Shown here: positions 1 to 54,867 of the stretch, piece by piece | How the letters are laid out: each line of letters starts with the position of its first letter | Numbering within the stretch: the stretch's first letter is position 1 | Position numbers and translations under genes: made by a program | Source of the DNA: Octopus vulgaris | Taxonomy: Eukaryota | Direction: 5' to 3' | Assembly: GCA_951406725.2 (NCBI GenBank) | Contig: OX597818.1 | Coordinates: 28,210,001-28,274,000, forward strand | DNA: 64,000 nt | Notes under the pieces: model-generated | What the model was told of the DNA's origin: nothing | The model's database searches: none | Seen by the model: the letters and a program-made list of their open reading frames with translations, nothing else

Positions 1-544
1 AAGAAGGCTTGATGGTGATGATGATACTTGCAAAAACAATGAAAAGAAGGAACAGGACTTAGCTGATATTTTTCATCCTGCGTATTGGCTAAGCCTGTGG
101 AAGCGAGTGAAGGCGAGATATATATACAGAGAGAGAGAGAGACAGTGATAACAGAGGGAGAAACCGACACCACATAGCGAGAGAGAGAGAGCGAGAGAGA
201 GAGAGAGAGAGACATAGTGATAACAGAGGGACAAAACGACACCGCGCAATGGGAGAAGATGAGATTTTTAGGCGGCAGAAAGAAAGACAGGATTTGAGAT
301 GGAATGCTTTGCGATCGTGTGCATAAGTTTCTATGAGTGGAAGTTGGGAAAAGATGGGTTAGAGAATTTAGCGACAGAAAGAAAGACCAAATTTGAGACG
401 AGATGTTTTTGCGAAGTTTTTGTAAATGAAAGTTTATATGCTTCAGCTAGCATTTGAGACGAAAGACAACGATAACGCCAATATATGGGGAAACAATAAT
501 AATAAGAAGGCTTGATGGTGATGATGATACTTGCAAAAACAATG
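1..544. repeat. 41-bp direct repeat (1-41, 504-544) flanking a GA-rich, CpG-containing unit of ~503 bp
   Basis: aagaaggcttgatggtgatgatgatacttgcaaaaacaatg occurs twice; internal repeat gaga..gtgataacagaggga. Confidence 0.7.
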
Positions 545-767
545 TATATATATATATATATGTATGTATGCATAGTTATGTATATATGTGTTTGTGTATG
601 TGTGAGTTTGTCTAGTTGGTCTGTATTCTCGTAGTTTCAGTACAATACAAAATATTTTAAATATTATTTATAGCCATGAATTATAATCATTATTTTTTAA
701 AAACATGGATGATGCTATATTAACATTTCAAAGAAACCTGATGTAGTGTATTTTTTTTTTTTTTTTC

Positions 768-1150
768 TCTTTTACTTGTTTCAGTCATTTGACTGCGGCC
801 ATGCTGGAGCACCGCCTTTTAGTCGAGCAACTCGACCCCGGGACTTATTCTTTTTATAAGCCCAGTACTTATTCTATCGGTCTCTTTTTGCCGAACCGCT
901 AAGTGACAGGGACGTAAACACACCAGCATCGGTTGTCAAACAATGCTAGGGGGACAAACACAGACACACAAACACGCATATATACATATATACGACAGGC
1001 TTCTTTCAGTTTCCGTCTACCAAATCCACTCACAAGGCATTGGTCGGCCCGGGGCTATAGCAGAAGACACTTGCCCAAGATGCCAAGCAGTGGGACTGAA
1101 CCCGGAACCATGTGGTTGGTTAGCAAGCTACTTACCACACAGCCACTCCT
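768..1150 (-). mobile_element. tRNA-derived SINE (Octopus-type)
   Basis: Minus-strand head aggagtggctgtgtggtaagtagc...ggttccgggttcagtccc (A/B-box-like); related copies at 15795, 25510 and 44376. Confidence 0.85.
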
Positions 1151-1409
1151 GTATATAAGCAATTCTTTAAAAAAAGCTTTGTACTGACTTTAATGGTTTC
1201 CTTTTCCAAACTGTTAATTTCCACGGATATGAACAAACCCAACAAGAATGTGTGTGTCTTTGTGTTCAGGTCCCACCACCACTTGTTGGTTTGTTCAAAT
1301 CTGTGGAACTTAACAGTTTGGAAAAGAAACCATTAAAGTCAGTACAAAGCTATATATATATATATATATATATACATATATATGTACATTCATACATACA
1401 TACATTTAT

Positions 1410-2007
1410 CCAGACAGATGATACAAAAAGGGACAAGAAAAAACAAGGATGACTCATTTGAAGTTTTCTTTCATCAGTCAAGATCTAGATTATCTTTGCA
1501 GTTTCAGCTGGTTATACTCGAAACTGCTCCAATTTGGCCTGCCCTAGGGGAAATCTAAGCTAAGAGCACTAAATTCCTTGGAAGCAAGCAGCAAATATAT
1601 ACAAAAACAAGGACAGAAAAAAATGGAGAAATGGTACACAATTACAAATGCAAACAACAGGACATTAACAACAGGTGTCTTTCAACTAAGAATGAATTAA
1701 ATTAAGCTGGTGTGTGTGGAAGTGAAGCCTTATGGCAGGGACATAAGAGATGACAGACCTGAGAAGGAATATAGATGTTGCACAGATGGTAGTTGAACCA
1801 AGAAAGAAAGGTCAGGCTTGGCTGAACACTGGTCACGTGGAGGCAGAGGGATAGAAGAATTAGGGAGGGATGAAAAGAAAAGAAAAGGGACAGAGTGAAA
1901 TGAAAGAGGAGGGAAGATGAGAAGGAAGGGAAGGCCGGGAAATGTGAGAGAGGGGGAGCAAAAGAAAGGAGAGTGGAAAGAATGAAGTGTGAAGAGAGTC
2001 ATACAAA

Positions 2008-2038
<31 letters not shown>

Positions 2039-2049
2039 CGTACACCTTG

Positions 2050-2095
<46 letters not shown>

Positions 2096-3034
2096 AAACC
2101 AAGGTGTACGTATGCTGCTATATGTATATAAAAAAGAATACAAGAAATGGGACAAGAATGCACAGGTGACAACAAGACATCCAGACAGTTAGATGATACA
2201 AAAAGGGACAAGAAAAAACAAGGATGAATCATTTGAATCATTCTTTTTTACATATATATAGTGGCGTATGTACACTTTGGTCCCTTATATATATATTTTG
2301 TACGACTCTCTTATTCTTTTATTCTTTCTTTCTTTCAGCCCTTCACACTTACTTCATTCTTTCTACTCTTCTTTCTTTCGCTCCCCCTTTCTCAAATTTC
2401 CTGGCCTTCTCTTTGTTCTCACCTTCCCTCCTATTTCACTTCACTCTGTCCCTTTTCTTTTTTTCTCGTCCCTCCTTAATTCTTCTATCCCTCTGCCTCT
2501 AACTCTCTCCTCTCCTTCCATGTGACCGATGCTCAGCCAAGCCTGACTTTTCTTTCTTGGATCGACGACCATCCATACAACATCTATATTCCTTCCCATG
2601 CCTGTCAACTCTTATGTCCTCTTATGTCACTTTCACACACACCAGCTTAATTTAATTCGTCCTTAGTTCAAAGACACCTGTTGTTAATGTCCTGTTGTTT
2701 GCATTTGTATTTGTGTACCATTTCTCCGTTTTTTTCTGTCTTTGTTTTTGTATACATTTGGTGCTTTCTTCCAAGGAATCTAGTGCTCTTAGCTTAGATT
2801 TTCCTTGGGGCTGGCCGAATTGGACCAGTCTCAAGTATAACCAGCCAAAACTGCAAAGATAATCTGGATCTTGACTGATGAAAGAAAATGTAGAATGACC
2901 CGTCCTTGTTTTTTCTTGTCCCTTTTTGTATCATCTAACTCTCTGGATGCCTTGTGGTCACCTGTTGAGTTATTATCCCATTCTTTGTATTCTTTTTTTA
3001 TATACATATAGTGGTGCACGTACACTTTGGTCTC

Positions 3035-3074
<40 letters not shown>

Positions 3075-3222
3075 GTGTGTATGTATGACAAGTTTCCTTC
3101 AGTTTCACTGTACCAAATCCACTCTCAAAGCCCAGAGCTATACTAGAATAGTGCTCTTAGCTTAGATTTCCCTTGGGGCTGGCCAGATTGGAGCAGTCTT
3201 CAGTATAACCAGCTGAAACTGT
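1410..3222. mobile_element. Two inverted partial-tandem copies of a ~750-775 bp non-coding element (Penelope pseudo-LTR-like)
   Basis: gatgatacaaaaagggacaagaaaaaacaagga at 1417 and 2192, reverse complement near 2905-2935; 1412-2010 mirrors 2295-2935; fragment at 3150-3222. Confidence 0.6.
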
Positions 3223-3904
3223 CTAGATGTCTTATTGCCATGCACAGTAGGACTGAACTCAGAACCAGGTGTTTGGAGAGTAAACTTCTTACTGCACCAG
3301 AAAACCTTTGAAAATGTTAAAATTTCATAACATGTACAAGAGACTTCTTGTAGACATTCCTAATTAACTTTGATATTTTACCTTTTTTTGAGCCTTACAC
3401 TTAATAATGCAGTTTATAAGTATATATGCTGTAAGTTTTATTTATACAGATAAACCAAATAATTATATAATTAATATTGAATACAAATGTATTTCTGTAA
3501 ACTTATTTGTGAATAGCTTCTCTTAATGGTAACATGCCCTCCTTTAAATATCAATAAGATATTGATGTGACAGAAATAGTACAATACTGTACTAATATTG
3601 ACAGAATGAAATTTAGTGTCAGTATATTCTGAGATTATATCACAATGAAGTAAATATTGTCCAATCAGTACTACTTTTACATAATTATTAGCATCTTGCT
3701 CATAGAAAAGAATTTTGAGTGCTATTTACTGAGGAACCCTCTTTCCAGACATTCATATTGAAATGGCATATTAACCCAAATTACTCTTTGTTTCCTCTTG
3801 TTTATTCCAAATAGATTTATTAGGCAATACATAATAAATTTATCAGGCAATACATTTCAGTAAAAATATAATTATGCCAATTTTTTAAATGTATTTTTTT
3901 GAAG

Positions 3905-3964
3905 CTGTGGAAGTACAATATGGTGAAGTAAGTGAGCACATTTATATAGAAATGAAAAAACGAG
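3905..3964 (+). CDS. Candidate 60-nt symmetric phase-1 micro-exon, (A)VEVQYGEVSEHIYIEMKKR
   Basis: Acceptor tttttttgaag|CT, donor CGAG|gtaagt, length divisible by 3, open frame with two Tyr motifs. Confidence 0.55.
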
Positions 3965-4086
3965 GTAAGTACAAATGATACTCTTAGCAGACATCATGAT
4001 CCTAGAAATTATCTTCAATGAACTATAAAGCTAACTATTATGAAATATACTATTCTCTAAATTTATCTGTTATTATGTGTGTATAC

Positions 4087-4126
<40 letters not shown>

Positions 4127-4128
<2 letters not shown>

Positions 4129-7100
4129 AATGAGGGAGTGGTGTTTCCACATAGGAAAACGATGTAGGAAAATGTGTTGTTGAAAATGCACTTAAATTTC
4201 AAAAGGTCGTAAATGTTTAAAATACATTTATTTACATATATACCAAACTAGTTTCAACAATATTTTTTGTTTCATCATCATCATCATCATCGTTTAACGT
4301 CCGTTTTCCGCGCTAGCACGGGTTGGACGGTTCGACCGGGGTCTGGGAAGCCAGGGGCCGCTCCAGGCTCCAGTCTGATTTGGCAGAGTTTCTACGGCTG
4401 GATGCCCTTCCTAACGCCAACCACTCCGTGAGTGGATTGGGTGCTTTTTACGTGCCACCTGCACAGGGGCCGGGGGGTCCGGCATTGGTCGCGATCGGTT
4501 CGAGCTTTTAACGTGCCAGCGGCACGGGGGCAACTGGGTCCGGGGTACTTTGGGGATCCGGGGTACTTTGGGGATCCGGGGTACTTTGGGAATCCGGGGT
4601 ACTTTGAATGGGTAGGGGGTATGTGGAATTGCTGCAGAAAGCAGTCCGGGTCTTTGCAGTCACAGCATATCTCCAGAGATCTCGGTCTTTCGCCATTGCC
4701 TCAGTGAGGCCCAATGCTCTGAGGTCATGCTTGACTACCTCATCCCATGTCTTCCTGGGTCTACCTCTCCCCCTGATACCTTCAACTGTTTGGGAGTGGC
4801 ACTTCTTCACACATCTCTCTTCATCCATCCGCAGCACATGACCACACCATCGCAAGCGTCGCTCTTGCACACCACATCTGATGCTTCTTATATCCAGCAT
4901 TTCTCTTAGGATGCTTACACTCTGTCTTGCGTGCACACTGACACTACACATCCAGCGGATCATGCTAGCTTCATTTCTTTCAAGTCTACGCATGTCCTCT
5001 GCAGTCACTGCCCATGTTTCATTACCGTGAAGCATGGCAGTTCGCACACATGCATCATACAATCTACCTTTCGCTCTGAGGGAGAGACCTTTTGTTGCCA
5101 GTAGGGGTAGGTGTAAAATTAGAAAAACATCGTTATAAGTTTAAATGTTGATAAATTATCATGTTCAAAACAGAAGGTGTAAGTTTGAAATTATAACTGT
5201 ATATTAATTTGTTAGAATGTACAAGGTTCATTAATTTTAGTGGTGGTCGACAAGTTATACTGTGAAAAACAAGTATGAGAATTAAAATAGTAAAACAAGG
5301 GAAATTTGGTTTATGGTTTATCAGATCTTCTTTAAACAGTCACTTTCGCTTGTAATGGTATGTTTAGGGAAAGATGTATTTATAATTTTTTTCTGTGAGC
5401 AGATCTGATTTTGATTTGTTAAAAAATTGATGACGTTTTTCGTCCCTGGTCAAGCTTGTCATTCTGCTTGGTTGGTTTCCATGTGGATACGGTTATAAGT
5501 CGTTCTGGTTGGATGGTTCTCATAAAGGGTCTTTTCGTTGTATTCACTGGAGTTCGGTTTTGATTGGTTTGGAATTATGTGACATCAGCAACTGGTGCTT
5601 GTGAAATTTCATTGGACTGGAGGTGGGTGATGTCAGCATCTTGTGTTTGTGTGGTGATTTGGAGCTGCAATTTCAAAACCCTGGTGGAAGATTGTTGCTA
5701 AAATTTTATTGTTTTTTGTGTTGAACTTGGGTGCTTTTTCTTCTTTCTAAAGGATATTTAGCTTTGATTTATATTTTTTAATCAGTATGTTTTCCTTATT
5801 TAAACAGAATTGGGTTGAAGTGTTTCCAGTGCATTGATAGAGAGGGAAGATTTGGTATTTAGGGTTTTTGTCTACGGGTCTGGTTAATGGGAGTTTTCCA
5901 AGTGGTGAGGTCCCAGATTTGTTGTCTGTACACCGTAAGTCTATCCCTCAAAGTTAAGCTTCTTTGACCATTTTAGTCTCCACCACAACCTCCACATTTA
6001 AGAACATAGATTAAATTCTTTAAAGCACAGGTGAAGTCATGTTTTATTGTAAAAGTTAGACTTGACTTAAATTTGTATGTTGAACCTTCTAAGGGAAAGG
6101 TGCAAATTCCGCAGTTAGGGCGGTTGCATTTTTTGACTTGTGGCGTTGTATTTTTGATGGGTAAATTGGTGCTGGTGAGTAATTTTTTTAGTGATAGTGG
6201 TTGTCTCTTACTTTTAATAATCCTATGTGTTTCTAGTGCCTTTTTCATTCGTGGGTCCTTCTTAAAGATGGGTATGTTTTGGTGGATGATGTTATATGCT
6301 TCCTGGTCCTTGGATTGTGTGCTGATATGTAAGATAGAGTTTTAAGTGTGTCATGGTGTTTTCTTGTTTTCCATAACTCTTAGATGTCTATCATTTTTGC
6401 ATGTTCTATTCCATTTTTGATTAGACTCATCAGGTATTTTCTATCTAGTAATGAGGTTTTAAGTTCTTGGAGTCGCTTTTTTCAGGTTTCGGGATTTGAT
6501 ACAGGGTGGCAAGAGGAGAATAGAAGATATTGTTTTGAGTTTGTTGGTTTGAAGAAGATGTCGGTTTCAATCTCAGTATCTCTCTTTATTATTAAGATAT
6601 CCAGGAAGAGTAGTTGTTGGTGGTTGTATTCCATAGTGAGTTGGATATTGTGGTTAATGCTGTTGATTAAGTCATCTAGGTAGTGTTTCCAGTTGGTAAG
6701 TAAGTATTTTTGGAAGTTTCCCCAAATTTTAATCTAGTGTGTTCATATATTTGGACTTCCAAGTTTGCTATGACAAGGTTGGCAAAATAAGCGCTACCCT
6801 CGTTCCCATCGCCATGCCCAATTTTTCTTCTATAAGTGTTATCATTGAAATTGAAAAAGTTGTTCTCTAGAATGAACCTTATTCCTTCAACGATGAATTC
6901 TTTTCTGATTCTGTCAGGAATGTCATTTGGGAAGTTTTCCAGCCAGTATTGTATGGCTATTATTCCGTATTTGTGAGGAATCGAGGTGTAGAGGTTTATT
7001 ACATCGAATGAAACCAGGAGGGAGTCTTTGCTGGTTTTGTTCAGGAGATGGTTTAAAAAGTCCAGATCATCCCGTATAAAGCTCAGTATATGTTGGAGAA

Positions 7101-7840
7101 TAGGTTTGAAGAGTACGTCACAAGAGGGACCAGCCACAATTGGTCTCATTTTGAGATCTCTCAGGTGTGGAATATTTATGACTTTAGAGGTTGACTTGTT
7201 ACAGGCTTCATTTATGGCCTTACTTTTGTGGATTTTGTGAAGTCCATAGAAGTTACTGGTTTTGCAGTCAAATCTAATCAAGTAGTCTGTCTCCTTTTGT
7301 GTTAAACCTTGTTGGAATTGTTGGATAAGGTAAACAGTTTGGTCATTATCTTGGATTGACTGTAGTTGTTGATTTTTTTCATAGTAGGTATTGTCTTGAA
7401 GGAGGGTTAGGGTAGTATTTATGTATTTTTGTGAGTCCATGATAACTACAGAGCTCCCTGTAAACAACATTAAATACATAAACAAATTAGTTAAATATGC
7501 AAACAACAAGAGAAAAATGGAAAAGAGTACAAGTAATACACAGAACGACCCTTCATCAGTTATTGACTGTCTATCCACTCCTCATTTCGGGCAAACAATG
7601 ATGATATGAGTCTTCAAAGACAGTTGCTCCCATAAATACCAAAATAAAGTTTGGATTTATGGAGAATCAAAGTTGGAAACAGAAACAGGATAGTGTAGAC
7701 ATACAAGGAAAGCAAACATGGAGGATTGTTAGACAAGAACAAGAGGAAAATAGTGAACACTGAGAGGAATATTTTCTTTGAAGAGAGAAAAGATATATAT
7801 ATGTATGTATCTATATACACACATATATATATACATATAT
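4127..7840 (-). mobile_element. Penelope-like retroelement (RT + GIY-YIG), degraded, with nested RTE
   Basis: ORF 6676-7578 has FYGLHKIHK, RPIVAG, SFDVINLYTSIPH; ORF 5973-6248 has CNRPNCGIC...TCALKNLIYVLKCGGC leading into GIY-YIG. Confidence 0.85.
4273..5110 (-). mobile_element. 5'-truncated RTE-clade LINE, 3' end with (CAT)n tail
   Basis: ORF 4508-5062 YDACVRTAMLHGNETW...RLRWCGHVLRMDE..GRPRKTW; 18-bp tandem repeat (about 4 copies) at 4539-4606 near its 3' end. Confidence 0.9.
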
Positions 7841-8881
7841 ATATATGTATATGATGGAAGTTAAAACTTGAAATTGTTAAAATTTCATTGCATATATACA
7901 ATATACTTCTTGCAGACATTCAAATGAAACACTGATATTTTACCCTCTTATTAATCCTTACCCTTATTAATGCATTTAATAAGCATATGTTTTGTAAGCT
8001 TTATTTATACAAATAAGCCAAATAATTGTATGACTAATATTCAATTCAGTAAATATTTGCCTGTGCATGAGACACAAAGTATTGAAGAGATTTGCAATTG
8101 TGAATGTTATCAGCTGTTGTTGTTGAGTATCCAAAATCACTTCTGCTTATGGATAACTCTAGCAAGAAAGTAATCTTGGGAAGACTCTTATTGCTGGAAA
8201 CATATTTGAGAATGATTTCTCATAATGGTAACATTACCATCTTTAAATATCTGTAAAATGTTGAAGTGACAGAAATAGTACAATGCTGTTCTAAATATTA
8301 GTAGAATCGAATTTAATCTTAATACAGTCTGTGATCAAATCCTATTGAAGTAAATTTTGTTCAGTTAGCTCTTCAATAAGCACTACATTTATATTATTAG
8401 CATTTTACTTGTAGAATTCAATTTTTGTGCCACTTTACTGAGGAAGCCTCTTCTCAAACATTAATTTTAAATGACATATTAACCAAAATTACTCTTTGTT
8501 TCCTCTTGTTCATACCAAAAAGTATTTATTAGACTATACTTTTCTTTTTCAAATATGTGAATGAGAGGATGATGAAAATATACTGAACATGGACTTTGAT
8601 TGGATTTAAATATTACTTGTTTCTAAATATATGTTTCTATATAATATATATATAGTATATATTTCAAGGATATACATCCACACTAGGGATTAATTAATTC
8701 AAGAATATCATATCCTCATTAGGGATTAATAAATCAAAAATTTCACTGGTTTAATCTCCATTGCTTTAGAAGATAGTTTCTATGCTGTGCTATGGATTAT
8801 TATAGATAAAGTTAATAATATAAGAAAATAGAGAGTTTTAGATGTATATTTAATTTATTTGCATAATAGTTTGTTTTTAAG

Positions 8882-8951
8882 GTATAAATACAAATAAATT
8901 CAATAGAAGACTCAAAACAAAACCTACATATGTTTCAATTCTAGCTCCTCG
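8882..8951 (+). other. Candidate (possibly decayed) 70-nt micro-exon, INTNKFNRRLKTKPTYVSILAP
   Basis: ttgtttttaag| acceptor and CG|gtaatg donor at the cassette position of the 3905 exon; length is not a multiple of 3. Confidence 0.3.
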
Positions 8952-9249
8952 GTAATGCCTTACTCAAACATTTGGGTTAAATCCAATGTTAAGAATTTAA
9001 GTTGTAAGAGGTAGAATCTCTTCAGCGTTTTGTTTTAATAATAACGAAGTTTACATCTCGCTTATAGGAATTCTAATTCATAACTATCATGAAATATGTC
9101 ACCCTCTAACTTTTATCTGTTAATATGTGTATATGAGTGAGTTTGAGTCTATATCATTAGTGTTTATTATGGTAGTATCAGCACAATACTAACATAATAT
9201 AAATGTTATTAATAGCCATGCTATTTGTTCTTTTTTTAATTTATTAAAG

Positions 9250-9291
9250 ACATGGATGTTGATTACGTTAATGTTCCAAAGAATCCTGGAG
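9250..9291 (+). CDS. Candidate 42-nt symmetric phase-1 micro-exon, (D)MDVDYVNVPKNPG
   Basis: T-rich tract..ttattaaag|AC acceptor, GAG|gtaagt donor; decayed paralogue at ~703-743. Confidence 0.55.
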
Positions 9292-10814
9292 GTAAGTATA
9301 TAAGCAATTTAACAGAAATTACATTCATTAGAGCAAGAGTTAGCAAATATTTTAGTTTTTTCTTTCTATGAGTAGAATATGCAGCTTAATATATATGTAT
9401 GACAGAAATTAAAATTTGAAAATGTTAAAATTCATTGCATATACAATAAACTTTTTATGAACATTTATATGTAACTCTGATATTTTACCCTTTTATTAAT
9501 CCTTACCCTTAAGAATGCCCTTCATAAGCATATATTTTATAAGCTTTATTTATTAAAATAAACCAAATAATTATATGATGAATATAGGATTCAGTAGATT
9601 TTTGTGTAGACATGAGACACAAAGTATCATAGAGATTTGCAATGGTGTACATGATCAGCTGTTGCTGTTGAGTATCTGAAATCACTCCTGATTAGCAAGA
9701 AAGTAATCTAACAAAGAATCTTATGTCTGTACACAAAATTAGTAGGCACCCATTGGACTCTAGAGTCCATAAATCAATTGAAAATTACATTAAAATGATA
9801 AATCTGAAGTGAAGAACAAGTACATAGTGCAGGTAGTTAATTGACTAACAAAAAAAACCGAACATTCCCAAATATGATAAAATCTGTTTTGCCACACAAT
9901 TTCACATCAGTAATCCTGTGAAATAAATATATAAACGTATTTCTGTAAACATATTTTCTGAATGACTTCTCTTAATGGTAACATCACTAACTTTAAATAT
10001 CAATAGAATATTAAAGTGACAGAAATAATATAATACTGTATTAAATATTGACAGAACTAAATTTAGTGTTAGTACATTCTGAGATTATATCCCAGTGAAG
10101 TAAATTTTGTTCACTCAGCCTCTCAATAAGTACAACTTTTACACATAATTATTTGAATTTTACTCATAGAATAGAATTTTGGGTGTCACTTTACTGAGGA
10201 GTCCTCTTTCCAAACCCTAACTTTGAAATGACATATTAACTAAAATTACTCTTTGTTTCCTCTTGTTCATACCAATTAAATTTATTAGACAATACTCTTC
10301 TTTTTCACAATACATGAATAAGAGAATGACAAACATAACCGTACATTGACTTTGATTGGATTTAAATATTTTTTGTTTCTTAATACATGTTTCTATATAG
10401 CGCGTATATGTATATAACATAATATAATATAATAGTAACAACAATAATCTCTGGATTCATTTTATAAACATCTAATGCGTTGCTGCATGCATTTTGACAA
10501 ATCATGTCTCTTAAGATCACAGTCCATATTCCTGGGATGAATACAGTGTACTTCATGGGCATCGTGCTGATCATCTTCATGGATTCATTTCATCAGGCGA
10601 TATAAGATTAATGGATATACAACAGAGTCATGCTTATCCCTTTTGACGAGTATGAAGGTTGATTGAGTTATGTGGGTATTTCTGTGTGTATTTGGTGGGT
10701 AGAAGGGGAAGGTGATGAAAAGAGAGGAAAGAATGATAGCTATATGGGGATGGAGGTGTATGTGGTGAAGCTGAACTTATTTTGCTCTTCATTCAGCAGC
10801 TGTCAAGATTGAGT

Positions 10815-13156: not shown

Positions 13157-13580
13157 GTTTTTTTTATAATAGACCAGTGGATTGTAAGCTCCACTCCATT
13201 CTGTTTGGGCCTCCAGACAAAGTTCGACAGTGATGCAGAGTGCTTTTTATTGATAGTGGAAAATGATGTGACATGATTATGTAGACAATTTTTCATGTTG
13301 TCTCCAGTGCCACCAATATACGTGTATTTCTGCATATCAGCCTTCACATTTGTAAATTACATTCTTTGTCATTATATCTGCATGACTCTTTACGTCTACA
13401 GTTACATAAAATGTTTATTTCCATTCTCCCTACAGAAAGACATCCTCTTTCCTCTTTCTCTTGTAATTGTGTACTCATTTCCCTTGTGTATGAATTAGAT
13501 CTTTAATTGTGTGGTGTTGTTTGGGTCCAGTTTTGCTATTGATGAGTTTTTATTACCCCTATTTGCAACCATTCCAGGCA
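13157..13580 (-). mobile_element. Penelope-like GIY-YIG fragment
   Basis: ORF 13111-13347 YIGGTGDNMKNCLHNHVTSF...SLSNFVW...WSII. Confidence 0.7.
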
Positions 13581-13998
13581 AATACACAAATGTATTTCAG
13601 TAAACATATCTGTGAATGGCTTCTCTTAATGGTAACATCACCACCTTTAAATATCAATAGAATATTGAAGTGACAGAAATAGTACAATACTGTACAAAAT
13701 ATTGACAGAACTAAATTTAATGTTTGGACATTCTAATATTACATCCCAATCAAGTAAATATTGTCCAATCAGCCTATCAATAAGTACTACTTTTACATAA
13801 TTATTAGCATTATGCTTATAGAATATAATTCTGGGTGCCACTTTACTGAGGAAGTCTCTTTCCAAACATTAACTTTGAAAATCAACCAAAATTATTCTTT
13901 GTTTCATCTTGTTCATAGCAAATAGATTCATTAGACAATACTTGTCTTTTTCCCAATACATGAATGCGAGGATGGAGAATATATACTCTACATGCACA

Positions 13999-15514: not shown

Positions 15515-15762
15515 TTTATATGTAAAATATATGATATATTTTATTATTATTATTTTTAAAGACTTTCTGCACAACATCAAAATAATTAAAATATCCTCTC
15601 CAAACAATAAATATGCCCATTTTTTATTTTATTTCCTGAAGTTATATAAGTTCAGTATGCTGAAGTTAGTGAGCCCAAATATGCATGTAAGTAGAATCAG
15701 TGTTGCTAGTTGACAGTTTGATCTCAGAAATATTAAATAAAAAAAGAAAGCTAACAATCATA

Positions 15763-20383: not shown

Positions 20384-20484
20384 ATTACCAGTGAAGGGCC
20401 ACATTTTTCAGATGAACTAACACCTAGAACCTTGTAGTATAGTATATAGCACCTTCTAGAAGTGAATGAAGTCTTGTGAGCAAT
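20384..20484 (+). other. Candidate 101-nt non-coding (UTR/lncRNA) exon
   Basis: Strong acceptor tttttattcttttatttttcag| and donor AAT|gtaagt; stops in all three frames. Confidence 0.4.
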
Positions 20485-22851: not shown

Positions 22852-25474
22852 TCATCATCATCATCATCATCATCGTTTAACGTCCGTTCTCCATGCTAGC
22901 ATGGGTTGGACGGTTCGGCCAGGGATCTGGGAAGCCAGAAGGCTGCACCAGGCTCCAGGCGAGGCTGGCAACGGCCACGGTCGGATTGGTGTATTTTACG
23001 TGCCACCGGCACAGAAGCCAGTCGAGGTGGCGCTGGCATCGGCCACGAGTCGGATAGTGCTTTTTATGTACCACCAGACCAGGGATCCTGGCTGGTTCAA
23101 TTCGATTTCGATTTCGATTTCGCTTGCCCCAACATGTCTTCGCAAGCAAAGGGGGTTGGCATGGGTGCCTGTCGTCGGATGAGGTTCTATATTGACTTCG
23201 CTTGCCTCAACAGGTCTTTGTGTCCAAGGGAGGAAAGGCATGCATAAGTGGGCTGGGCTCACTTGTCCTGCCTGGTCTTCTCGGGTACAGCGTATTTCCA
23301 AAGGTCTCGGTCGCTGGTCATTTCCTCAGTGAGGCCTAAAGTTCAAAGGTCGTGCTTCACCACCTTGTCCCAGGTTTTCCTGGGTCTACCTCTTCCACGA
23401 GTTCCCTCAACTGCTAGGGATTGGCACTTTCTCACACACCTATCTTCATCCATTCTTGCCACATGACCATACCAGCGCAATTGTCTCTCTTGCACACCAC
23501 AACTGATGCTTCTTAGGTACAACATTTCTCTCAAGGTACTAACGCTCTGTGGAGTATGTACACTGACATTACACATCCATCGGAGCATACTGGCTTCATT
23601 TCTCACGAGCTTACACATGTCCTCAGTAGTCACGGCCCATGTTTCACTGCCATGTAGCATAGCTGTTCGTACACATGCATCATACAGTCTGCCTTTTACT
23701 CTGAGCGAGAGGCCTTTAGTCACCAGCAGAGGTAAGAGCTCCCTAAACGTTGCCCAGGCTATTCTTATTCTAGCAGTTACACTTTCAGCGCACCCACCCC
23801 CACTACTGATTTGGTCACCTAGATAACGGAAGCTATCAACTACTTCTAGTTTCTCCCCTGGAAAGTGACGGAAGTTGTTTTCTGCAGATTTTCAGAGGTT
23901 AATGCTCCCGAGCATCTGCCACATACAAAAACTATCTTCCCAGTTAGCCTACCTTTGACATTGCTGCACCTCTTATGTGTCCATAGCTTACACTGGGTAC
24001 ATCTTATAGAGTTTCTACCTACACCTTTTCTACAGATCGAGCAGGGCCATCTTCCTGAAGACATTTGTGGATTGTCTACCTTCCTACTTATTAGTACTTT
24101 GGTTTTAGCTAGGTTGACTCTAAGGCCCCTCGATTCTAAACCCTCCTTCCACACCTGGAACTTCTCCTCCAGTTCTGATAGTGACTCAGCAATTAGAGCA
24201 AGGTCGTCAGCATAGAGGAGCTCCCAGGGGCAACCTGTCTTGAATTCCTCCGTAATTGCCTGGAGGACTATGATAAATAGGAGGGGGCTAAGTACTGAAC
24301 CCTGGTGCCCCCAACCTCTACTTTAAATTCTTCTGTGTACATGTTGCCAACCCTAACCTTACTTACGGCATCTCTGTACATGGCTTGCACAGCCCTCACC
24401 AGCCATTCATCTATCCCTAGTTTCCTCATTGACCACCAGATAAGGGATCAGGGGACCCTATCAAAGGCTTTCTCCATGTCAGCGAAAGCCAGGTACAGGG
24501 GCTTATCTTTGGCTAGGTATTTCTCCTGCAGCTGCCTTACCAGAAATATAGCATCAGTGGTACATTTCCCTGGCACGAAACCAAACTGCATCTCATCTAA
24601 ACTAACTCTCTCTCTAATTAGTTGGGCTATGACCCTCTCCGTAACCTTCATTACCTGATCCAACAGCTTGATACCTCTGTAATTATTTGTATCTAGGGCA
24701 TCACCTTTACCTTTGTAGCAGTTGACTAGTATGCTGCTACACCAGTCATTGGGTATGACTCCTTCATGTATCACCTGGTTGACTATACGGGTGACTAGGT
24801 TATAGCCGACACTGCCAGATATTTTGAGCATCTCTGCAGTAATTTCTGATGGGCCTGTGGCTTTCCCTGTCTTCATGCTTCTAATTGCTTTAACTACCAA
24901 AGAATTTTCAACTCGGATGGCTGGTCCTTCTGTTGGGTTGACATTCGGCAGACTCTCTTTATTCCATTCATTTTCTTTATTCAGCAACCTTTCATAGTGG
25001 CATCTCCAAACCTCTCTCTTTGCATCCTCATTTAGCGCAAGTGAACCATCATCCCAGCGAACACACTTCTCTCCTGCCACATCACGATTCTCTCTCACAC
25101 ACTGTCTTGCAACACGAAATACCTCAAGTCTTTCATCCTCACGGCTCAGAACATTGGCAAATTTTTTCTTATCCGCTTCCCCTCTGGCTAAATAAACCTG
25201 TCTCCTAGCTTCCCTTCTGGCTGTCTGATACAATTCTCTGCTACCACCGTTCTTCCAGTCCTTCCAAGCCTGTCTCTTTTGTCTAATAGCCCTGTCAACC
25301 ACAGTGTTCCACCACCATGTTACTCTGGGTCGAGCTGGTACTTTGCTCCATCCACAGATCTGGTCAGTGGTTGTCAGGAGATTGTCCCTTAGAAATCTCC
25401 AGTTGTCTTCCACATTAAGTGAAGCTATATCCCTTTCTATTTCGTCAAAGGCTTCGAGTAGTATGTCTCTAAAC
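22852..25474 (-). mobile_element. Younger 5'-truncated RTE LINE (RT, PHD-like Cys region, C-terminus), disrupted
   Basis: ORFs 24448-25554 (NYRGIKLL, QFGFVPG, DMEKAFDRVP), 23846-24154 (CSIC..CTQC..HKRC) and 23343-23723; (CAT)n tail at 22852. Confidence 0.95.
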
Positions 25475-25509
25475 ATCAAAGGCTTCGAGTATATATATAT
25501 ATGCACATT

Positions 25510-25850
25510 TTTATTTGTTACAGTCATTGGATTGTGGCCATAATAGGGCACCATTTTGAAGGGTTTAGTTGAACAAATTACCCCAATAATTTTTTTTAAC
25601 GTCTGTTACTTATTCTAGCAACCTTGTTTCCTGAACTGGAAACATAAACAAAACAACTCTGGTGACTGAGCAATGGGCGAGGGATGGACAAACATAAACA
25701 CTAAGATACTCACAGAGATATACACACACACACCTATATATATGTACATAGACAATAGGGTTCCACACAGTTTTCATCAATCAAATTCACTCGCAAAGCA
25801 TTGGCTGATCCAGGGCTACAAATGGAAGACACTTGTACAAGGTGCTTCAT
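25510..25850 (-). mobile_element. Degraded SINE
   Basis: Homologous to 768-1150. Confidence 0.7.
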
Positions 25851-26778: not shown

Positions 26779-28058
26779 TTGGGTTGTCCGGAAAGTTCAT
26801 GCTGAATTATAGTAGCTTACCTTTCGACTTATTTTAGATCATGGTTGAGTCCATGAAATAAGATTTGACTACACCTCCATTTAGAGCACAGTTTAAGCTA
26901 TCTTTTCGTGGAAGAAGGTTTATGTTCCTATAACCTGTGTTAATTCTGTAACCCTTTAAAATGGAAGATAAGAAAGTTCACTTTCGGCATTCGATGCTTT
27001 TCTTTTTCTGTAAAGGGAAAAATGCCTCACAAGCAACCAAAGAAATATGCCCAGTTTACAGTGATGTTTCTTTATCCGAAAGAACAGTATGGGAGTAGTT
27101 CGCAAGGTTCCAGGTGGAGATTGTAGCCTTATTGATAAAGAGCAATCAGGCAGACCATCCACTACAGATGATGACCAAATCAAGTCATTAACTGAGAATA
27201 ACCCACATTGCACAACCCGAGAATTGGCAGAAAGCCTCAACCTATCAAAATCTGTCGTTCATGAGCACCTGGAAAAGCTTGGGTACACAAATTGCCACGA
27301 TGTTTGGCTACCACATGAGTTGAGTGAGAAGAACCTTTTGGATCGCATTTCCATCTGTGATTCACTTTATAAATGGAATGAAAACGTGCCTTTTTAAAGC
27401 AAATTGTGACAGGTGATGAGAAATGGATTATCTACCGAAATGTTCAGAGAAAGCAATCCTGGAGTAAGCGACATGAGCCACCCTTAGATATCCCAAAAGC
27501 GGGTCTTCACCCTAAAAAAAGTTTTGCTTTGTTGTCTGGTGGGATTGGAAAGGAATTCTGTACTATGAGCGTCTCCCAAGTAACCAGACAATTCTGAGAA
27601 ATACTGCACACAACTGGATGAATTAAAAACGGCAATTCAAGAGAAACATCCAGAATTGGCCAACAGGAAGAGTGTTGTTTTCCAACATGATAATGCAAGA
27701 CTGCACGTTTCTTTGGGAACCAGACAAAAATTGCTGCAGCTCGGCTGGGATGTGTTACCCCACCTTCCATATTCACCAGATATTGCTCCTTCGGATTTCC
27801 ACTTATTCAGGTCTTTGCAGAATAGGCTTAATGGTAAAAATTTCAATTCCTTGGATAACATAAAAAGATACCTTGATGAATTCTTGGCCATGAAACCACC
27901 TCAATTCTGGGAAGAAGGTATTTTCAAGTTAAAGGAAAGATGGAGACGCATTGTGCAACAAAATGGTTCATATTTGGTTGATTAAAAATGTAATGGCAAG
28001 TATTTATTGACCTTTTTCTTTCCTTTAAAAATCGGCACAAACTTTCCGGACAACCCAA
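26779..28058 (+). mobile_element. Full-length mariner (DD34D), transposase pseudogenised
   Basis: TIRs ttgggttgtccggaaagtt / aactttccggacaacccaa; WLPHEL, TGDEKW, HDNA, YSPDIAPSDF split over several ORFs. Confidence 0.95.
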
Positions 28059-28554
28059 TATATATGTATGTATGCATGTATGTATGTATGTATGTTTGTA
28101 TGTATGTATGTATGTATGTATCAGTGATGAAGAGTAGCAAGGGAATTAGGGCATGCAGTCCGCCCCCATTACACTGAGGTTGGCAGGGGGGTAGACTTCT
28201 GAGTGCTCCATTGTCTCCCATTTTCTGTGAAAAGTGCTTTGAGATATGGGGAATCTGAAAATGAAAATAGTTTTCCTGCCTACGAGACACCTTTTCAAAG
28301 TAGTTAGCAAGACATGAGAAATGTACATACAAACATTTCCAAATTATATACAGGAATCATGTGACTAGTGCGCAAAAAAACTTTTGAGACTGTCCCTTAA
28401 TATAAGTGAAGTTAAATTTGATTAACTCGTTTCAAAATGTGTTTGTATTATTTTTTTGCTCAAACCCTTTGAAACATTAGCAGTACCTCATCCTCAGTTC
28501 TGTATCACTCCTTCATGCAAGATGTTGTGTGCCACACCTACTAATGCTTAACTA

Positions 28555-29833
28555 TTAGGTCATCAAGCATGAAATTTGTAGAGAAGAAAAAAGTTTGCTA
28601 ATGTTTTATAAATACAAGGAATAGTTATATTCAACAAAGTATTCACCCATATTGTCAATACAGTTTTGCCATTTCAGTGGTAGCTTGTCCAGCCCAGAAC
28701 TGTAAAAGCCTGCCAATCTAGAGTCAATAAAATCTTGGAAGGCCTGTTTTACAGCATCGTCGGAATTAAATTTTTGTTCTATCAAAAAGTTATCCAAATT
28801 CTGGAAGAAGTGGTAGTCAGTTGGGACAAGACCAGGTGGGTATGGTGGATGATGGCGATCTTCCAACTCCAACTCCTGTAGTTTCACCAATGTCATTTTT
28901 GCGATGTGTGGTCTGGCATTGTCTTGCAATAAAATATGAGTAGATCTGCTGACTAATCTAGGCTGTTTTTTTTTTGTAAGTCTCTGCATCATTTGGTCCA
29001 GTTGGCTGCAGTATACTTTGGCCATGATTGATGAACCAGGTTTAATAAAATCATAATGGATCACACACAGACCATAAAATACATACCATCTTCTTCTTTT
29101 AATGAATTTTGCTTTTTCAACTGTGTTTTGGTGGTTCATCTTTGTCCAACCATTGTCTTGAATGTTTACGGTTGTTGTACTGGATCTATTTCTCATCACA
29201 TGTTACAATTTGATTAAAAAATGATTCATTTTTGTGATGAGAAAGTAGCATAATGCAAGCTTCCAAACGTTGCTGTTTCTGATTTTCATCGAGTTCATGT
29301 GGAACCCACTTATCCAACTTTTTCACTTTACCGATTTGAACTAGGTGAGTCAATATTGTTTGCTTTCTGACACCAAACAACGACGATAATTCAGGGGCAC
29401 TTGGAGATAGATCTGACTTGACGGTGGCTTTCAGCTCGTCATTATCCACCTTTGTTTCTGGTCAACCATGTTGCTCATGTTTGAGGTCAAAGTTACCAGA
29501 ACGAAATTTTGCAATTTGATATTGTCTGCTGTGTAATAACATTAGAATGAAATACTCCATTAATGTTCCGAGCTGTCTGTTATGTTGCATTTCCAAGAAA
29601 GAAGTCATATTTCAAAACTGTACAAATTTCTGACTCATCCATCTCTACACAAAAAATAGCAAAAAACAATTTATAAATACTTTATAAAGCACAAAATGAG
29701 TTAGAATAAAGAAATAGATGTGTCAACTTTCTAACAAAAAATAAAGATTGTCAAAATGTAATAATGGCGCAAAATGAGCAGCTATTAAAGTTTACCATAT
29801 ACCTTACTACAAATTTCATACTTGATGACCTAA
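28555..29833 (-). mobile_element. Full-length mariner (second family), pseudogenised
   Basis: TIRs ttaggtcatcaag(c/t)atgaaatttgtag with TA flanks; WVPHEL, TCDEK, QDNARPH, PTDYHFF. Confidence 0.95.
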
Positions 29834-30651: not shown

Positions 30652-32318
30652 ACAGTTGGCCATAAGTGGAAAACATTTATCAGTGCACAGATATAATTGA
30701 AGAAAATAGGTAGGATTATCGTCAAATCCTCAATGTTGACGAATTTGGGAAAAAAATGTCAACAAGAACTTTTCTGAAAAGAAAAGAGGCAATGACACTG
30801 TGTTATAAAGCACCCAAGAATAGACAAACACTTGTACTCAGAGGTAATGCCAAAGTTGAATGCAAATTAAAACCAATGCTAATTCATCATACAATACACC
30901 CAGGAACATTAAAAGGCAGTAACAAGCAATCTCTTTCAATAATTTGGGAACCGAATAAAATGGCTTGGGTGACAAAGCAGTTGTTTGAAGAATGTTTCAA
31001 TATGCCTTTTTGTTCCATGTTTGAAAAATATTGCAAAAAAAAAAAGTTTAGATTTCAAAGTTCTAATTTTAGATAATTCCCTTAGGCATCCCACCTCAAT
31101 GATTTAGATAGCAATGTGAAGGTTATATTTCTATCACCAAATACGACTCATTTACTACAGCCAAGGAGTGATTACCAAGAAGTGATTTCTACAATACATT
31201 CAAACCATATTATTTGCAAAGAACTTTCATGCAGGTAATTCAAGTTATAATCCAATCACACTTGAAGAATTTTGGGTGAAAATTGAGAAACAAGCAGTTG
31301 AAAACTTTCACAAGTCTTGGAAGAAGTAACAGGCAGCTGTATGAGAGCTGTCTGGCAGAATCTTTTACTTGAATGCACTAACGATTTTTTCAGTTTCAAT
31401 AACCCCAGCAACAAAGTTATTAATGAAATTGCTACAACTGGAAGATACTTCTGCTTTGAGGAATTAAGGAAATAGATTTGGAAAATGTTAGAGAATTAAT
31501 GGAGTTGTTTCAGATTAAAAAAACAAACTAAGTAATGACAATCTTTTTGGAATGAAGCATCAAAAGGCATATGAAAGAGAAATGAAAAGTAAACAGAAGA
31601 AATGGAAACCACACCCAAAGATATTTCAGTCAAAAAACTTCAAGAATTGTTACAAACAATTGAAAAAGCAAAAGAACTCATTCAAAAGATTGATTCAAAT
31701 GAAAAGAGATGCATGAACGTTCGTTGAGGGCTAGATAAGCAAATGGTTGCTATTGCAAAATCATGGAGGGAAGTAAAACAGCTACCACTGTTTAATGGAA
31801 GGTAGATACTATATTTTTTTTAATATACTCCTCAATTATTTAAAGTAAATACAATGCATTATAGATGTGTTTTATGGAGGAACATGGCCTAGTGGTTAGA
31901 GCAAGGAACTTGCAGTCAAAGGATCACGGGTTTGAATCTCAGACCAGGTGATGTGTGTGCTTATGAATGAAATACCTAAGCTCCACGCAGCTCCAGCAGA
32001 AGGTAATGGCAAACCTGCTGACTCCTTTGCCACAACTTTCTCTCACACTTTCCTCCTACATCTAGCAGCTCACCAGCATCCTGCCCAGGTGGGGGAATCT
32101 ATACACAATGAAACTGGCCCTTATGAGACAGGTATGGCTTGAGAAGGAACAAACAACAACATAGATGTGCTTTGATTGAGAAAAAAATGTTTATGATTTT
32201 GGTATTTCCAAGAGTTTGCTATAATAATTGCATTGGTTCTTAGGTTTGATTAATGTGGTTTTGGTATATGTGGAGTTTCAGGAGAATTAATCAACCACAC
32301 TAATCAAGGAATTCATGT
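30652..32318 (+). mobile_element. Tigger/pogo-like DDE transposon relic
   Basis: NVDE, STRTFL..KAPKNRQTLVL.GNA..KLKPMLI..NKMAWVT, followed by decayed LDN..H and SPNTTHLLQP. Confidence 0.8.
31876..32160 (+). mobile_element. tRNA-derived SINE nested in the Tigger relic (mirror 59510-59794)
   Basis: Head tggcctagtggttagagca..gggtttgaatctc; (AAC)n tail; imperfect TSD atagatgtg(t/c)ttt. Confidence 0.85.
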
Positions 32319-32639
32319 AATAGATATTCGACAAGCTTCTTTCCAGTTTCTGTTGTGTTGTTGCCACAGTTAGATATGAACTCTGTTACTATGGGTTTGC
32401 CTTCGGCTTCACATAATTTATTCTTGCGTCTTTTCTCTACAATGAACTAAGTAATTTGCACATGACTGCAATTGGTACGTATGTTTGTTTATAAATACCA
32501 TATATTTTCCATCTAATAACTGAAAAAGATAAAAAGTAAAATATATACTCTTCATTATCGAATAATCATATGAAATCATCAGTAAAACAAACTTGCAAAT
32601 TGACTAAACACAGGTTGACAGCTAGCTAAAGGGCAAGCA

Positions 32640-35600
32640 GTGAAAAATCTGAAGTCTAACTTAAGAAATTGAGGACTCTTTTCTACCATAGGCTGAATAG
32701 ACCCAATCAAGTGGTAGATCTGTCCCTGGACTTTCAAAGTCAGCATGGCCCGTATTCTGATTCAAGCTTTGCTCTGAAGGATGTCATATGAAAGGCAGAA
32801 TTCTGGTAGCAGATATTACGCAGAAACTTCACTGATTCCTCTTCTGTGTCTGTCAAAAGGAGTTGTAATGTCTCTGGAGGGTTGTAAATAGGAGGTAGTC
32901 TAATTTCATCGTTTGAGCAGCAGATTCCATCTCTTTCCTCTGGCCACTTTTTCGCACAACATATCTGGCAAGTAGAGGTCATTTCCCCAAGTTGGATATT
33001 TCCATGGCTGGCGTAGTCATAGGAGGAGTCGTAGTTAAAGGCTTTCAACAACCATCGTGAATTGCAAGTCCTAGAAATGCCATGAAACAATGATGGCCGC
33101 TTTTCAATTTGAAGTGGTTGGTCACATCATTGCTGTATGGTTTCACTATTTCATGCAGAGCAGTGGCAGTGGCATTCCTGCTTCATCAAACACCATGTCG
33201 TCCTTCATCATTTTGAGAGCGAACAGCACCTGTTGCAGTGGAATCCCTGCTTCGTTGAATGGCACATAGTCCTTCATCCTCTCAAGTGCTAGCAATGGCT
33301 GTTGCAATAGTGTACCTGCTTCATCAAATGGCATGTCGTCCTTCATCCTCTTGAGCATGAACAGTGGCAGTTGCAGTACCATCCATGCTGTGTTGAATGG
33401 CATGTTGTCCTTCATTCTCTCGAGCACGAGCAGCAGATATGGCAGCAGCATCCCTGCTTCGTCGAACGGCACACCATTCTTCATCCTCTTGAGCGGGAGC
33501 TGTGGATGTTGCAGTGGCATCCCTGCTTCATTGAATGGCAAGTCGTCCGTCATCTCCTCGAGCGCGAACAGCAGCAGTCACTGCAGCATCTTTGTTCTGC
33601 CAAGGTTCATGCCAACTGTCATCTTCCTCTGCTCTTCCAGCTGCCATCTGCACAGTATTCAGTGAGAGCATGATCGCACTTGCATTTACATCTTCGGTGA
33701 CATGCCTTCGGTTAGATCTACTTGCATCAGTGACCAATCAAAGTTCTTTTCTTAAGAGGCATTGTTTTTAGAGAATTAACCAGGGAGAACAATGAAATGT
33801 GAACAAATGACGTTTAAGTAAGCAAATCTAAACACGAATATAAATTGCGAAAAAATGTAATATATCTATATGCTCTGAGAAAGTGAGTATGTTTTGCAAG
33901 ATTTTGTGTACCAGTCAAATCTCGGGTTTTAAGTTAGGGGCAACCCAGCGTATGGACTACCTGTGATAAAGGAAATTAAATAGTGTGGCTACAGTGGTAG
34001 GTATATAAGTGTCAGTATGTTTGTTCAGTTTGAACATCGAGTTATGCACCACACAAACGTATGGCCGTCGGTGATACCACTACAGGTTCTAGCGTGAAAC
34101 AGCCTGCTCGCACACGTGGAAACCCACTCAGCAAGTCATTTACCGCAACAGAAACAGAAAAAGCAGTATCGAGAAGCCAGAAAAGCCGTCAACAACAAAT
34201 CTAAACCGTTGCATTTCGTCAAACTTAATTTTCTTGATAAAATCACAACATGAACGTCTCTACGACACAACTACCAACTCATGGTCTTTTGTTGATCTCA
34301 GCTCGCAACACCTACATGATGACCATTCTTTGACCTTTTTTGTCAACTCAGCAACTGAACTTTTTGTCCACTCAACAACCGATCTCTCCTTCCTACTGAC
34401 CTAACTCCATGGCTGTCCTTCTCGTCTACTGTCTGCTCTCTCTTTTTAAAGGCTTTTTTCTCTTTATCCATCTGACAACATGGACTGTTCAATTTTTCTT
34501 TTTATTTCTTTTAATAGACTTCGTTTTTTCTTCTTTTTCCTTTCTTTTTTCTTTTAAAAGACAGGGAATGATGTTCGCGTCACACAAACACAAAATCAAT
34601 ATATTTTTTTGCCGTTCGTAACAATAGCAATAAGTAAATATTAACTATTGAAAGGATAGAGGCAAAAATGTCCAAAAAATCACAGCATGATAAACTGGAA
34701 ACTTATGACCATAAACACATTAAATAAACCTCATTTAAAGTGTAAATTGTTGAAAAAGCATACATTTCAGAAACATGGGGTAGCTTATGAAAGTATACAA
34801 GTAAAAAAACCTACCACTTGTCAAAAGCCAAAAATGAAGTATGATCCTAGGTTGGACTCGACCGAGATAAATAGAAGTGATTTCGCTTAATGAAAAACAC
34901 TGAAGGTGTCTGATTGGTTAGATAATACAAATAAGTGTGATGAAATCTGCTGAACACAACTCACTGATGTGTGGTTGGCCAGAGGTCACCATTTCCCACT
35001 TAATTAGGGTACAATTAAATGGGGGAGGCAACTGTGTGCAAAAACTAATCAATCATTTGCACAGTTTAGGCATAATTGTGAAATAGCACAATTTACATAC
35101 AGTAGACATTAAAATTTACACCTGGGTTAAATCACACTTTCTTGGTTAGGAGTATGAAATGATGCTAAAGTTCAAGGAAAAAAATTTAACTCTCCATTCC
35201 ACACTTAATTGTGGGGCAATTACACATGGGAGACAACCGAGTGCAAAATTAAATTCAACCATCCTAGAGTTAACTGAGTAAATTAAAGTTTAGTCAGTGG
35301 GACTTATGAATTCACTACTCCATTTGTAAGACATGAGTAAAAGATGCGTCGACTTTTGTTTAAATTGACTGTTATTTCCAGAAGTTAAAATGATTTGCTG
35401 CAATCATATATGAACTCTAAAAGTAGTCCAAAGGGGCTCACTGCCTTCCCTAGGGGGGCAGAATTGAAGTGATAACGAATTTGCAATACTTTATCTTATG
35501 ATTGGCAAGAACCATGAAAAACTCCTGAGGTTCTGATGCTGTTTTATTGTGGCACTTTGAACTTTTATGGGTTAATGATTTAGGTTCATTGTTCCCAAGG

Positions 35601-36455: not shown

Positions 36456-36754
36456 TATGTGTGTGTATGTATGGATGTGTCTATATGTGCATATATATAT
36501 GTATCAGAAGATCATGTTTTTGATTCCTGAACCAGGCGGTGTGTTGTATCTTGTGCAAAACACTTCATTTCATGTTGCACCTGTCCACTTAGCTGTAAAT
36601 ATATAACCCTGTGATTGGTTGCCAATCCATTCAAGGGGTATCTTGTGATCTTGGTCACTTATTCACCATGGAAACTGAGTAACTACTACTTGAGACCTAC
36701 TACTTGGCAGAAATATTCAGGGGCTTGGTTTCTACTATACACACCCAAGTAAAC

Positions 36755-36792
<38 letters not shown>

Positions 36793-36797
<5 letters not shown>

Positions 36798-37826: not shown

Positions 37827-38039
37827 TACATGTGTCCATATATATTATTTATACTTTGCACATTATGATATAAACCCCCTGTTTTTGCTGTTATCTATAT
37901 CTAACGATATTGAAACATGTGACTTAATTTTGAAAGCAGATAAATTTTTGAAGTGCAGATGGCTGGAGCTTAAGTCACTAAAACTATTGAATTGCTTAAT
38001 ATTTTGAGAGGTACAGTTTAAAATTAGGTTGGTTTTTCA

Positions 38040-54866: not shown

Positions 54867-54867
<1 letters not shown>

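Follow-up and report, generated by a model that had tools for sequence, protein, structure and literature searches.

The window analysed here is a 64,000-nucleotide (nt) stretch of the Octopus vulgaris genome (G000:C5:28210001-28274000, C5 being contig OX597818.1; other contigs are labelled likewise). On its plus strand it carries the last tail exons of a gene for a type I receptor with eight immunoglobulin (Ig) domains and a single transmembrane (TM) segment, referred to below as the host gene. A preliminary description, made from the sequence letters alone, had picked out two exon-like units of 60 and 42 nt and proposed them to be hidden micro-exons encoding phosphotyrosine motifs of a receptor tail. 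Both units are the final two in a tandemly duplicated series of 15 intact phase 1-1 cassettes in this receptor's tail (Table 1).

Table 1. Features of the host gene and its tail (positions within the window, or on contig C5 where so marked)
Feature	Position	Strand	Remarks
Signal-peptide-like exon	C5:28059751	+	Upstream of the Ig exons
Eight Ig exons	C5:28073921-28134528	+	One mapped copy each in the host gene
TM exon	C5:28140077-28140181	+	AG and GT present; judged by hydrophobic sequence
13 further intact cassettes	C5:28179308-28203483	+	Upstream of the window
Decayed 42-nt-type cassette (pseudo-exon)	703..743	+	Acceptor AG lost, 1-nt deletion, without donor
60-nt cassette, phase 1-1, coding	3905..3964	+	Two tyrosines (VQYGEV, YIEM); 14th of 15 intact
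Dispersed repeat of ~450 bp, intronic	about 8640..9086		Contains exon-like 70-nt piece 8882-8951
42-nt cassette, phase 1-1, coding	9250..9291	+	YVNV; last intact tail cassette
Degenerate 60-nt-type copy	15642..15686	+	45 nt, in-frame stop; an inner AG would leave a 36-nt open piece
Final coding exon	20384..20484	+	Phase 1 entry adds DYQ; stop 20392-20394

The receptor tail and its host gene

Each of the two exons has an AG acceptor, a GTAAGT donor and an open phase 1-1 frame. Their lengths, splice sites, frame, translation and tyrosine motifs are all as the preliminary description had claimed, and the copy that it had noticed near the start of the window is indeed decayed. An inner GTAAGT at position 3928 lies within the 60-nt exon, and its use would yield a frameshifting exon of 23 nt. 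To call the exons hidden was an overstatement, since the public proteins P0001, P0018 and P0003 already join both; the exons are annotated, and the proteins are present in databases as uncharacterised. Two further features had gone unmentioned, namely the degenerate copy at 15642, which is absent from the public gene models examined, and the final coding exon at 20384. The reading frame closes three residues past the last cassette, and homologous exons terminate the tails of six other paralogues. Paralogues which keep a preceding phase-changing exon (P0052) enter this final exon in another frame, and consequently the C-terminus depends on the entry phase. In the same region, an intron starts about 90 nt past the stop of the host gene.

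Protein P0001 (source label Octopus vulgaris) is 100% identical over the eighth Ig exon. Of the 15 cassettes it has 12, both of those in the window among them, and its junction residues agree with the splice prediction in 11 of 11 cases. The end of the O. sinensis model (P0003) is identical to that of P0001. In the O. bimaculoides orthologue (P0053) both cassettes are kept with their YxN motif, and YxxM is lost in the 60-nt one. The complete tail of the host gene comprises 18 cassette-like copies, of which three are decayed and 15 intact (nine of 42 nt, six of 60 nt). Together, the intact ones encode 19 tyrosines, nine YxN and seven YxxM motifs, yet only ten distinct peptides.

The ectodomain and TM exons lie 70-150 kb upstream of the window on the plus strand, where the preliminary description had recommended to look for them. 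A cytoplasmic receptor tail built from symmetric tyrosine-motif cassettes, as it had proposed, is thus borne out. The TM exon is 94% identical to the TM segment of the orthologue and codes for no charged residue inside this segment; an Arg close to the inner end of the TM segment occurs in one O. bimaculoides paralogue. Between the TM exon and the first cassette, no counterpart of the O. bimaculoides orthologue's first tail exon was found. P0001 and P0018 substitute another exon (C5:28163722-28163949) for the true TM exon, and because similar sequence occurs elsewhere in the region this substitute looks repeat-derived. P0003, in turn, combines cassettes from two different genes of this assembly, being either a chimeric model or a real species difference.

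The ectodomain consists of Ig families: Ig_3, I-set and Ig_2 score above the Pfam cut-off in P0018, no EGF family was found in any of the eight proteins scanned and FN3 gave no Pfam hit in eight proteins. In P0003, P0053 and P0050 the last Ig domain runs directly into the TM segment. The outermost domain (D1) is missed by Pfam, but models as an Ig fold with a predicted local distance difference test score (pLDDT) of 77; its best structural match reaches Z 8.6 with a root mean square deviation of 2.6 and 83 aligned residues. Ig domains from many families tie for the best structural rows (Z 7.4-8.6), so that no single closest family emerges, and Siglec is absent from the best 50. A sequence profile of D1 found no relative in the PDB. 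The best PDB sequence matches are ICAM-1, Robo2 and Dscam, with E values of about 1e-6 or weaker.

These results bear on the identity that the preliminary description had suggested for the receptor, a receptor-type protein tyrosine phosphatase (RPTP) or a MEGF/Draper-type protein. We consider either assignment extremely improbable. Short symmetric juxtamembrane exons do have the general look of such genes. However, a lower-bound search placed none of 99 matches to the protein tyrosine phosphatase (PTP) family PF00102 within C5:27.4-29.5 Mb, the nearest on the contig lying at 16.9 Mb, and the frame ends almost directly after the last cassette, while the Ig composition without EGF families argues against MEGF/Draper. 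Elsewhere in the genome, intronless PTP domains occur in long open frames at C25:14010456, C9:71851125 and C2:120299834.

The exon-like piece at 8882-8951, which had been proposed as a further cassette encoding PTYVSI, was rejected. It is derived from the dispersed repeat in which it sits, and its inclusion would put a stop into the next exon, the 42-nt cassette. The repeat has 48 genome matches across many contigs, with no other listed in the receptor cluster, and 13 of 19 copies have the same AG and GT.

Cassette census and constraint

DNA searches of the octopus's own genome returned 41 matches to the one exon region and 18 to the other, most of them at C5:27.5-28.8 Mb or on C28 and C31. 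Nearly all of the 30 and 18 loci inspected preserve the length and both splice sites, with the 60-nt type varying by one whole codon; frame and tyrosines are conserved at paralogous loci, a point which the preliminary description had put up for checking. A profile-free scan of 1.064 Mb detected 33 open pieces with tyrosine motifs, all 33 on the gene strand as against zero on the opposite one, although it missed the 60-nt exon itself at its pyrimidine-tract threshold. For the eighth Ig exon 13 matches were obtained (seven on C5, two on C28, two on C31 and two fragments on C15), for the first Ig exon eight on C5. Near-identical copies of one paralogue lie outside the main cluster, at C28:7.99-8.04 Mb, C28:10.69 Mb and C31:2.8, 6.7-6.8 and 9.1 Mb, and a broken paralogue copy lies at C15:67.9 Mb. 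Possible gene fragments are an additional first-Ig exon at C5:28363258 (plus strand) and, at 28572900-28588100 (minus strand), a stretch that nearly copies the tail of another paralogue; no eighth-Ig exon was found between them.

A census by profile covered 864 kb from the tail regions of eight units of the cluster. It returned 102 cassette-like copies, 82 of which have both AG and GT, and 75 of these are 42, 60 or 63 nt long. None of these 75 canonical copies contains a stop, against simulated expectations of about 4.6 in 38 and 9.2 in 18 distinct copies, and the key tyrosine is lost in only four of the 38 (14.4 expected) and four of the 18 (8.5 expected). The star-tree simulation treats the copies as independent, and the profiles are biased towards well-preserved ones. 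YxN is present in 35 of the 45 copies of 42 nt and YxxM in 19 of the 30 copies of 60 or 63 nt, while the ITIM (immunoreceptor tyrosine-based inhibitory motif) consensus occurs in six of 75. YxN and YxxM are consequently the shared motifs of the cassettes and ITIM is rare. The ITIM reading of the preliminary description therefore holds for the two copies in the window, but not for the family.

Among paralogues, D1 is 43% identical, compared with 70-78% for D2-D8. Trees built from D2-D3, D7-D8 or D8 did not resolve most octopus paralogues.

Exon skipping

In three O. bimaculoides paralogues, 13 of the 20 current RefSeq isoform proteins have shorter tails, and all 13 are shorter by 14, 20, 34, 54 or 68 residues. 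Since these differences are sums of 14 and 20 residues, they correspond to whole-cassette steps. Older independent models of two of the three genes contain the same length steps. Distinctive single cassettes are also skipped in models, whereby the junction residue changes as splicing predicts. What stands of the earlier proposal that the cassettes are skippable is thus whole-cassette skipping in annotated isoforms of paralogues from another octopus, that is, in gene models and not in reads. Judging from these predicted proteins, exon skipping likely sets the number of docking sites in the tail.

RNA contigs from four of 24 runs were inspected over positions 400-10400 of the window. They were swamped by repeats, their layout has no cover in the bin with the 60-nt exon, and the junction 3964 to 9250 is not among the joints listed, which says nothing about expression.

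Two tail types

A paralogue at C5:29.1-29.4 Mb (P0016), Argonauta P0055 and cuttlefish P0232 end in the aligned motifs YA(D/E)L(D/E)F and TxYAx(I/L), the second of which fits the consensus of the immunoreceptor tyrosine-based switch motif (ITSM) as given in the consulted sections of PMC11507803. By pattern match, such an end is found in all three of these ancestral-type tails and in none of the 11 other cephalopod proteins scanned. The ITSM exon is present as a single copy in the genome search, and none was found for the host gene. In the inverted neighbour of the paralogue that keeps it, the exon is still in place, but decayed, with its acceptor lost and a stop acquired (0 of 500 shuffles reach its score). 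The keeper's tail, too, is made up of short exons in phase 1-1 that have the same acceptor signature.

Both tail types are present in cuttlefish, where P0060 and P0231 have tails of YxN-rich repeats of about 20 residues without an ITSM end. The 60-nt profile scores these cuttlefish tails at 32.1 and 21.6 bits, which is not reached in 300 shuffles, although shuffling also destroys repeat structure; with the 42-nt profile they do not rise above shuffles. When D4-D5 of 13 proteins are placed on a tree, the ectodomains cluster by species, and uniting the ITSM-tail genes in one clade is rejected (p-value of the approximately unbiased test, p-AU, 3e-55). For this test P0235 and P0012 were labelled as cassette-tailed despite annotated tails that are an artefact and a truncation, respectively, which leaves the tested clade unaffected. 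Given the species-wise grouping of ectodomains and the two tail types, either there were two origins of cassette tails, or each lineage homogenised an old pair. Among 1.84 billion representatives scanned, the close single-stretch relatives that could be named are cephalopod, and the next named single-stretch match is a bivalve protein with 28% identity (10 of 150 hits looked up).

Proposed function of the tail

Taken as a whole, the observations are best explained, and on balance probably so, by a tail that acts as a multivalent phosphotyrosine scaffold, with exon skipping likely setting the number of sites. Once a ligand had bound the variable outer Ig domain, the acid-flanked tyrosines would be phosphorylated by a Src- or Syk-type kinase. 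Following known SH2 preferences, the nine YxN sites of the host gene would then dock Grb2-type adaptors and the seven YxxM sites the p85 subunit of PI3K. More cassettes could mean more clustering and a stronger signal, by analogy with LAT. The ancestral tail may have ended in an ITIM-like and ITSM pair that recruits an SHP phosphatase, again by SH2 preference, and one paralogue retains this pair; the cassette-rich paralogues without it, the host gene included, would represent the activating-type members of a paired family. Such a family would most likely serve in cell or microbe recognition. It likely works as activating and inhibitory receptor pairs. We put forward only tentatively, as a possibility rather than an expectation, the more far-reaching idea of a coleoid paired self/non-self system, shared by octopus and cuttlefish, in which an ITSM-ended inhibitory Ig receptor faces an activating-type cluster with varied outer domains and the strength is dialled by the number of 14- and 20-residue phosphotyrosine exons duplicated and spliced.

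Several observations weigh against this interpretation. First, the ratio of nonsynonymous to synonymous substitution rates (dN/dS) is 0.80 and 0.93 for the cassettes and thus near neutral outside the key residues; most positions therefore drift, while the key tyrosine is retained. Second, 20 of the 102 copies lack a splice site, which indicates high turnover. Third, dN/dS is 1.21 (0.90-1.66) for D1, which does not count as above 1, and 0.94 (0.53-1.78) for D7; positive selection on D1 is not demonstrated. Fourth, junction reads were not seen for the host gene; public models of the cluster contain errors such as the replaced TM exon of P0001 and the joined cassettes of P0003, and near-identical cassettes can mimic skipping in models built from short reads. 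Fifth, the first motif of the ancestral-type tails is a strict ITIM in only one of three, the cuttlefish one, and the first-domain regions of the ITSM-exon keeper (P0016) and its inverted neighbour are 99.8% identical over 3.2 kb, which could reflect a very recent duplication or an assembly effect. Finally, ITIM-consensus matches blur the activating label, as they are found in the last two cassettes of the host gene, in those of P0053 and in cuttlefish cassette tails as well.

The first two of these points would fit a scenario of real exons whose copy number is for the most part neutral. In a disordered tail, a short intron-exon unit would go on duplicating and decaying, selection would purge only stops and frameshifts, and the variety of isoforms would be noise or mis-mapping. 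Several neighbouring copies are indeed identical including their flanks, and the small set of distinct peptides among the host gene's cassettes points in the same direction. In contrast, loss of the key tyrosine is far below the simulated level, distinctive single cassettes are skipped with the predicted junction residue, and tails of tyrosine repeats occur in cuttlefish members of the same family. We thus regard largely neutral change as unlikely.

The ITIM matches could also mean that the host paralogue is itself inhibitory, its last two cassettes being an ITIM pair evolved anew, spaced by 20 residues, for the recruitment of an SHP phosphatase. Both cassettes fit [SIVL]xYxx[IVL], and the orthologue P0053 keeps both matches. 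However, this consensus is so loose that one change at position -2 suffices, few of the intact copies in the census match it, and the host gene has nine YxN and seven YxxM sites but no detected ITSM exon. An inhibitory host gene therefore appears quite unlikely to us.

Another possibility concerns the role of the family and would leave the tail mechanism unchanged: the receptors might be a neural or developmental adhesion and recognition family (nephrin-, Kirrel- or Sidestep-like), with a tail linked to the cytoskeleton instead of immune activation. The ectodomain gives a weak C2-set_2 match, as in nephrin-type proteins, Kirrel-like clusters are among the Atlas look-alikes, and a variable outer domain also suits neural recognition families. 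Yet no FN3 family was hit, the two tail types with species-wise ectodomains form the pattern known from immune paired receptors, and the top Atlas cluster is automatically named CD22-like, although this is a lead only. We therefore judge a neural role to be somewhat unlikely and prefer cell or microbe recognition by a paired family.

Comparison with known systems

Vertebrate paired Ig receptors and receptors with ITIM and ITSM include SIRP, CD22/Siglec, CEACAM and PD-1. The octopus family resembles them as a tandem cluster of multi-Ig type I receptors with a variable outer domain, with one member ending in an ITIM-like motif and an ITSM, and with ectodomains that group by species. It differs in having no close sequence link to them (see the PDB matches above) and in that its non-ITSM members have long tails with tyrosine motifs of their own. 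The activating member of a vertebrate pair has a short tail and a charged TM residue for an adaptor with an ITAM (immunoreceptor tyrosine-based activation motif), whereas the host gene is long-tailed and its TM segment uncharged. CD22/Siglec proteins bind sialic acid through an invariant Arg of an outer V-set domain; in contrast, none is invariant among seven D1 sequences, whose invariant columns read C, W, A, V, I, N, T, C and F. MEGF10/Draper carries EGF-like repeats in its ectodomain and nephrin and Sidestep a membrane-proximal FN3 domain, both of which differ from the octopus receptor, where neither family was detected and the last Ig domain meets the membrane directly.

The comparisons with published systems that follow draw on the consulted parts of the respective sources. 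The tail of shrimp Dscam has seven optional exons, giving at least 384 tail isoforms, behind an ectodomain of ten Ig and six FN3 domains with mutually exclusive exons (PMC6851185). As in the octopus gene, skippable tail exons of an Ig receptor add or remove signalling motifs (PMC6851185). However, the octopus gene has eight Ig exons and no FN3, and the Dscam tail exons are described singly, whereas two repeated types of cassette are arrayed in the octopus tail. The fester co-receptors (FcoR) of Botryllus also form an invertebrate multigene receptor family with spliced tyrosine-motif tails, in which ITIM, ITSM and other tyrosine motifs are switched by allele and splicing (PMC11507803). In contrast to the octopus receptors, they are tied genetically to allorecognition and use hemITAMs (PMC11507803). 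Hydractinia Alr proteins are likewise clustered invertebrate receptors of the immunoglobulin superfamily (IgSF) with tyrosine-motif tails and alternative splicing; most have an FN3-like fold, their tails are highly diverse and 14 of these contain ITAMs (10.1101/2022.03.04.482883). The octopus family differs by the lack of FN3 hits in Pfam and of the ITAM pattern, which was found in none of 14 cephalopod proteins. LAT is a flexible membrane-anchored scaffold with nine tyrosines, in which the number of Grb2-binding sites governs clustering (PMC9629719). With several Grb2-type sites on a flexible tail it may serve as a model for the proposed mechanism, but the octopus sites are part of a receptor and lie on separate exons. 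Taken together, the host gene encodes an IgSF receptor without features that define RPTP, MEGF, Siglec, nephrin, Dscam and Alr.

No papers on this receptor family were found in the literature searched, which covers few subscription journals, and a term search found neither octopus nor cephalopod in a 2025 review of invertebrate IgSF proteins (PMC11999971). Within that literature, neither a tail arrayed from two repeated motif exons that can be skipped nor the pairing of such a tail with an ITSM member appears to have been described. The family, present in octopods and a cuttlefish and with both tail types identified, is a concrete candidate for the recognition of cells or microbes by cephalopods. 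If the proposed mechanism is true, nature would here set signalling valency through the copy number and skipping of exons.

Other features of the window and its surroundings

Four intron blocks (3301-3830, 7839-8661, 9389-10416 and 13580-13997) have a mutual identity of 76-84% and are probably relics of duplicated cassette units. Fragments at 4508-5140, 6676-7581, 23343-25605 and 27584-29461, in introns and downstream of the gene, resemble non-LTR (long terminal repeat) retroelement and mariner transposase genes. The GC-rich stretch C5:28053200-28056100 has translations that resemble ribosomal DNA read in reverse. Downstream of the gene lies an inverted duplication, 31039-44702 versus 45132-60631, which is 97.8-98.8% identical over about 6.1 and 7.6 kb and may represent a recent rearrangement or an effect of assembly. 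Each of its arms contains one 69-nt tandem repeat with an open frame, at 33146-33577 and 58091-58522.

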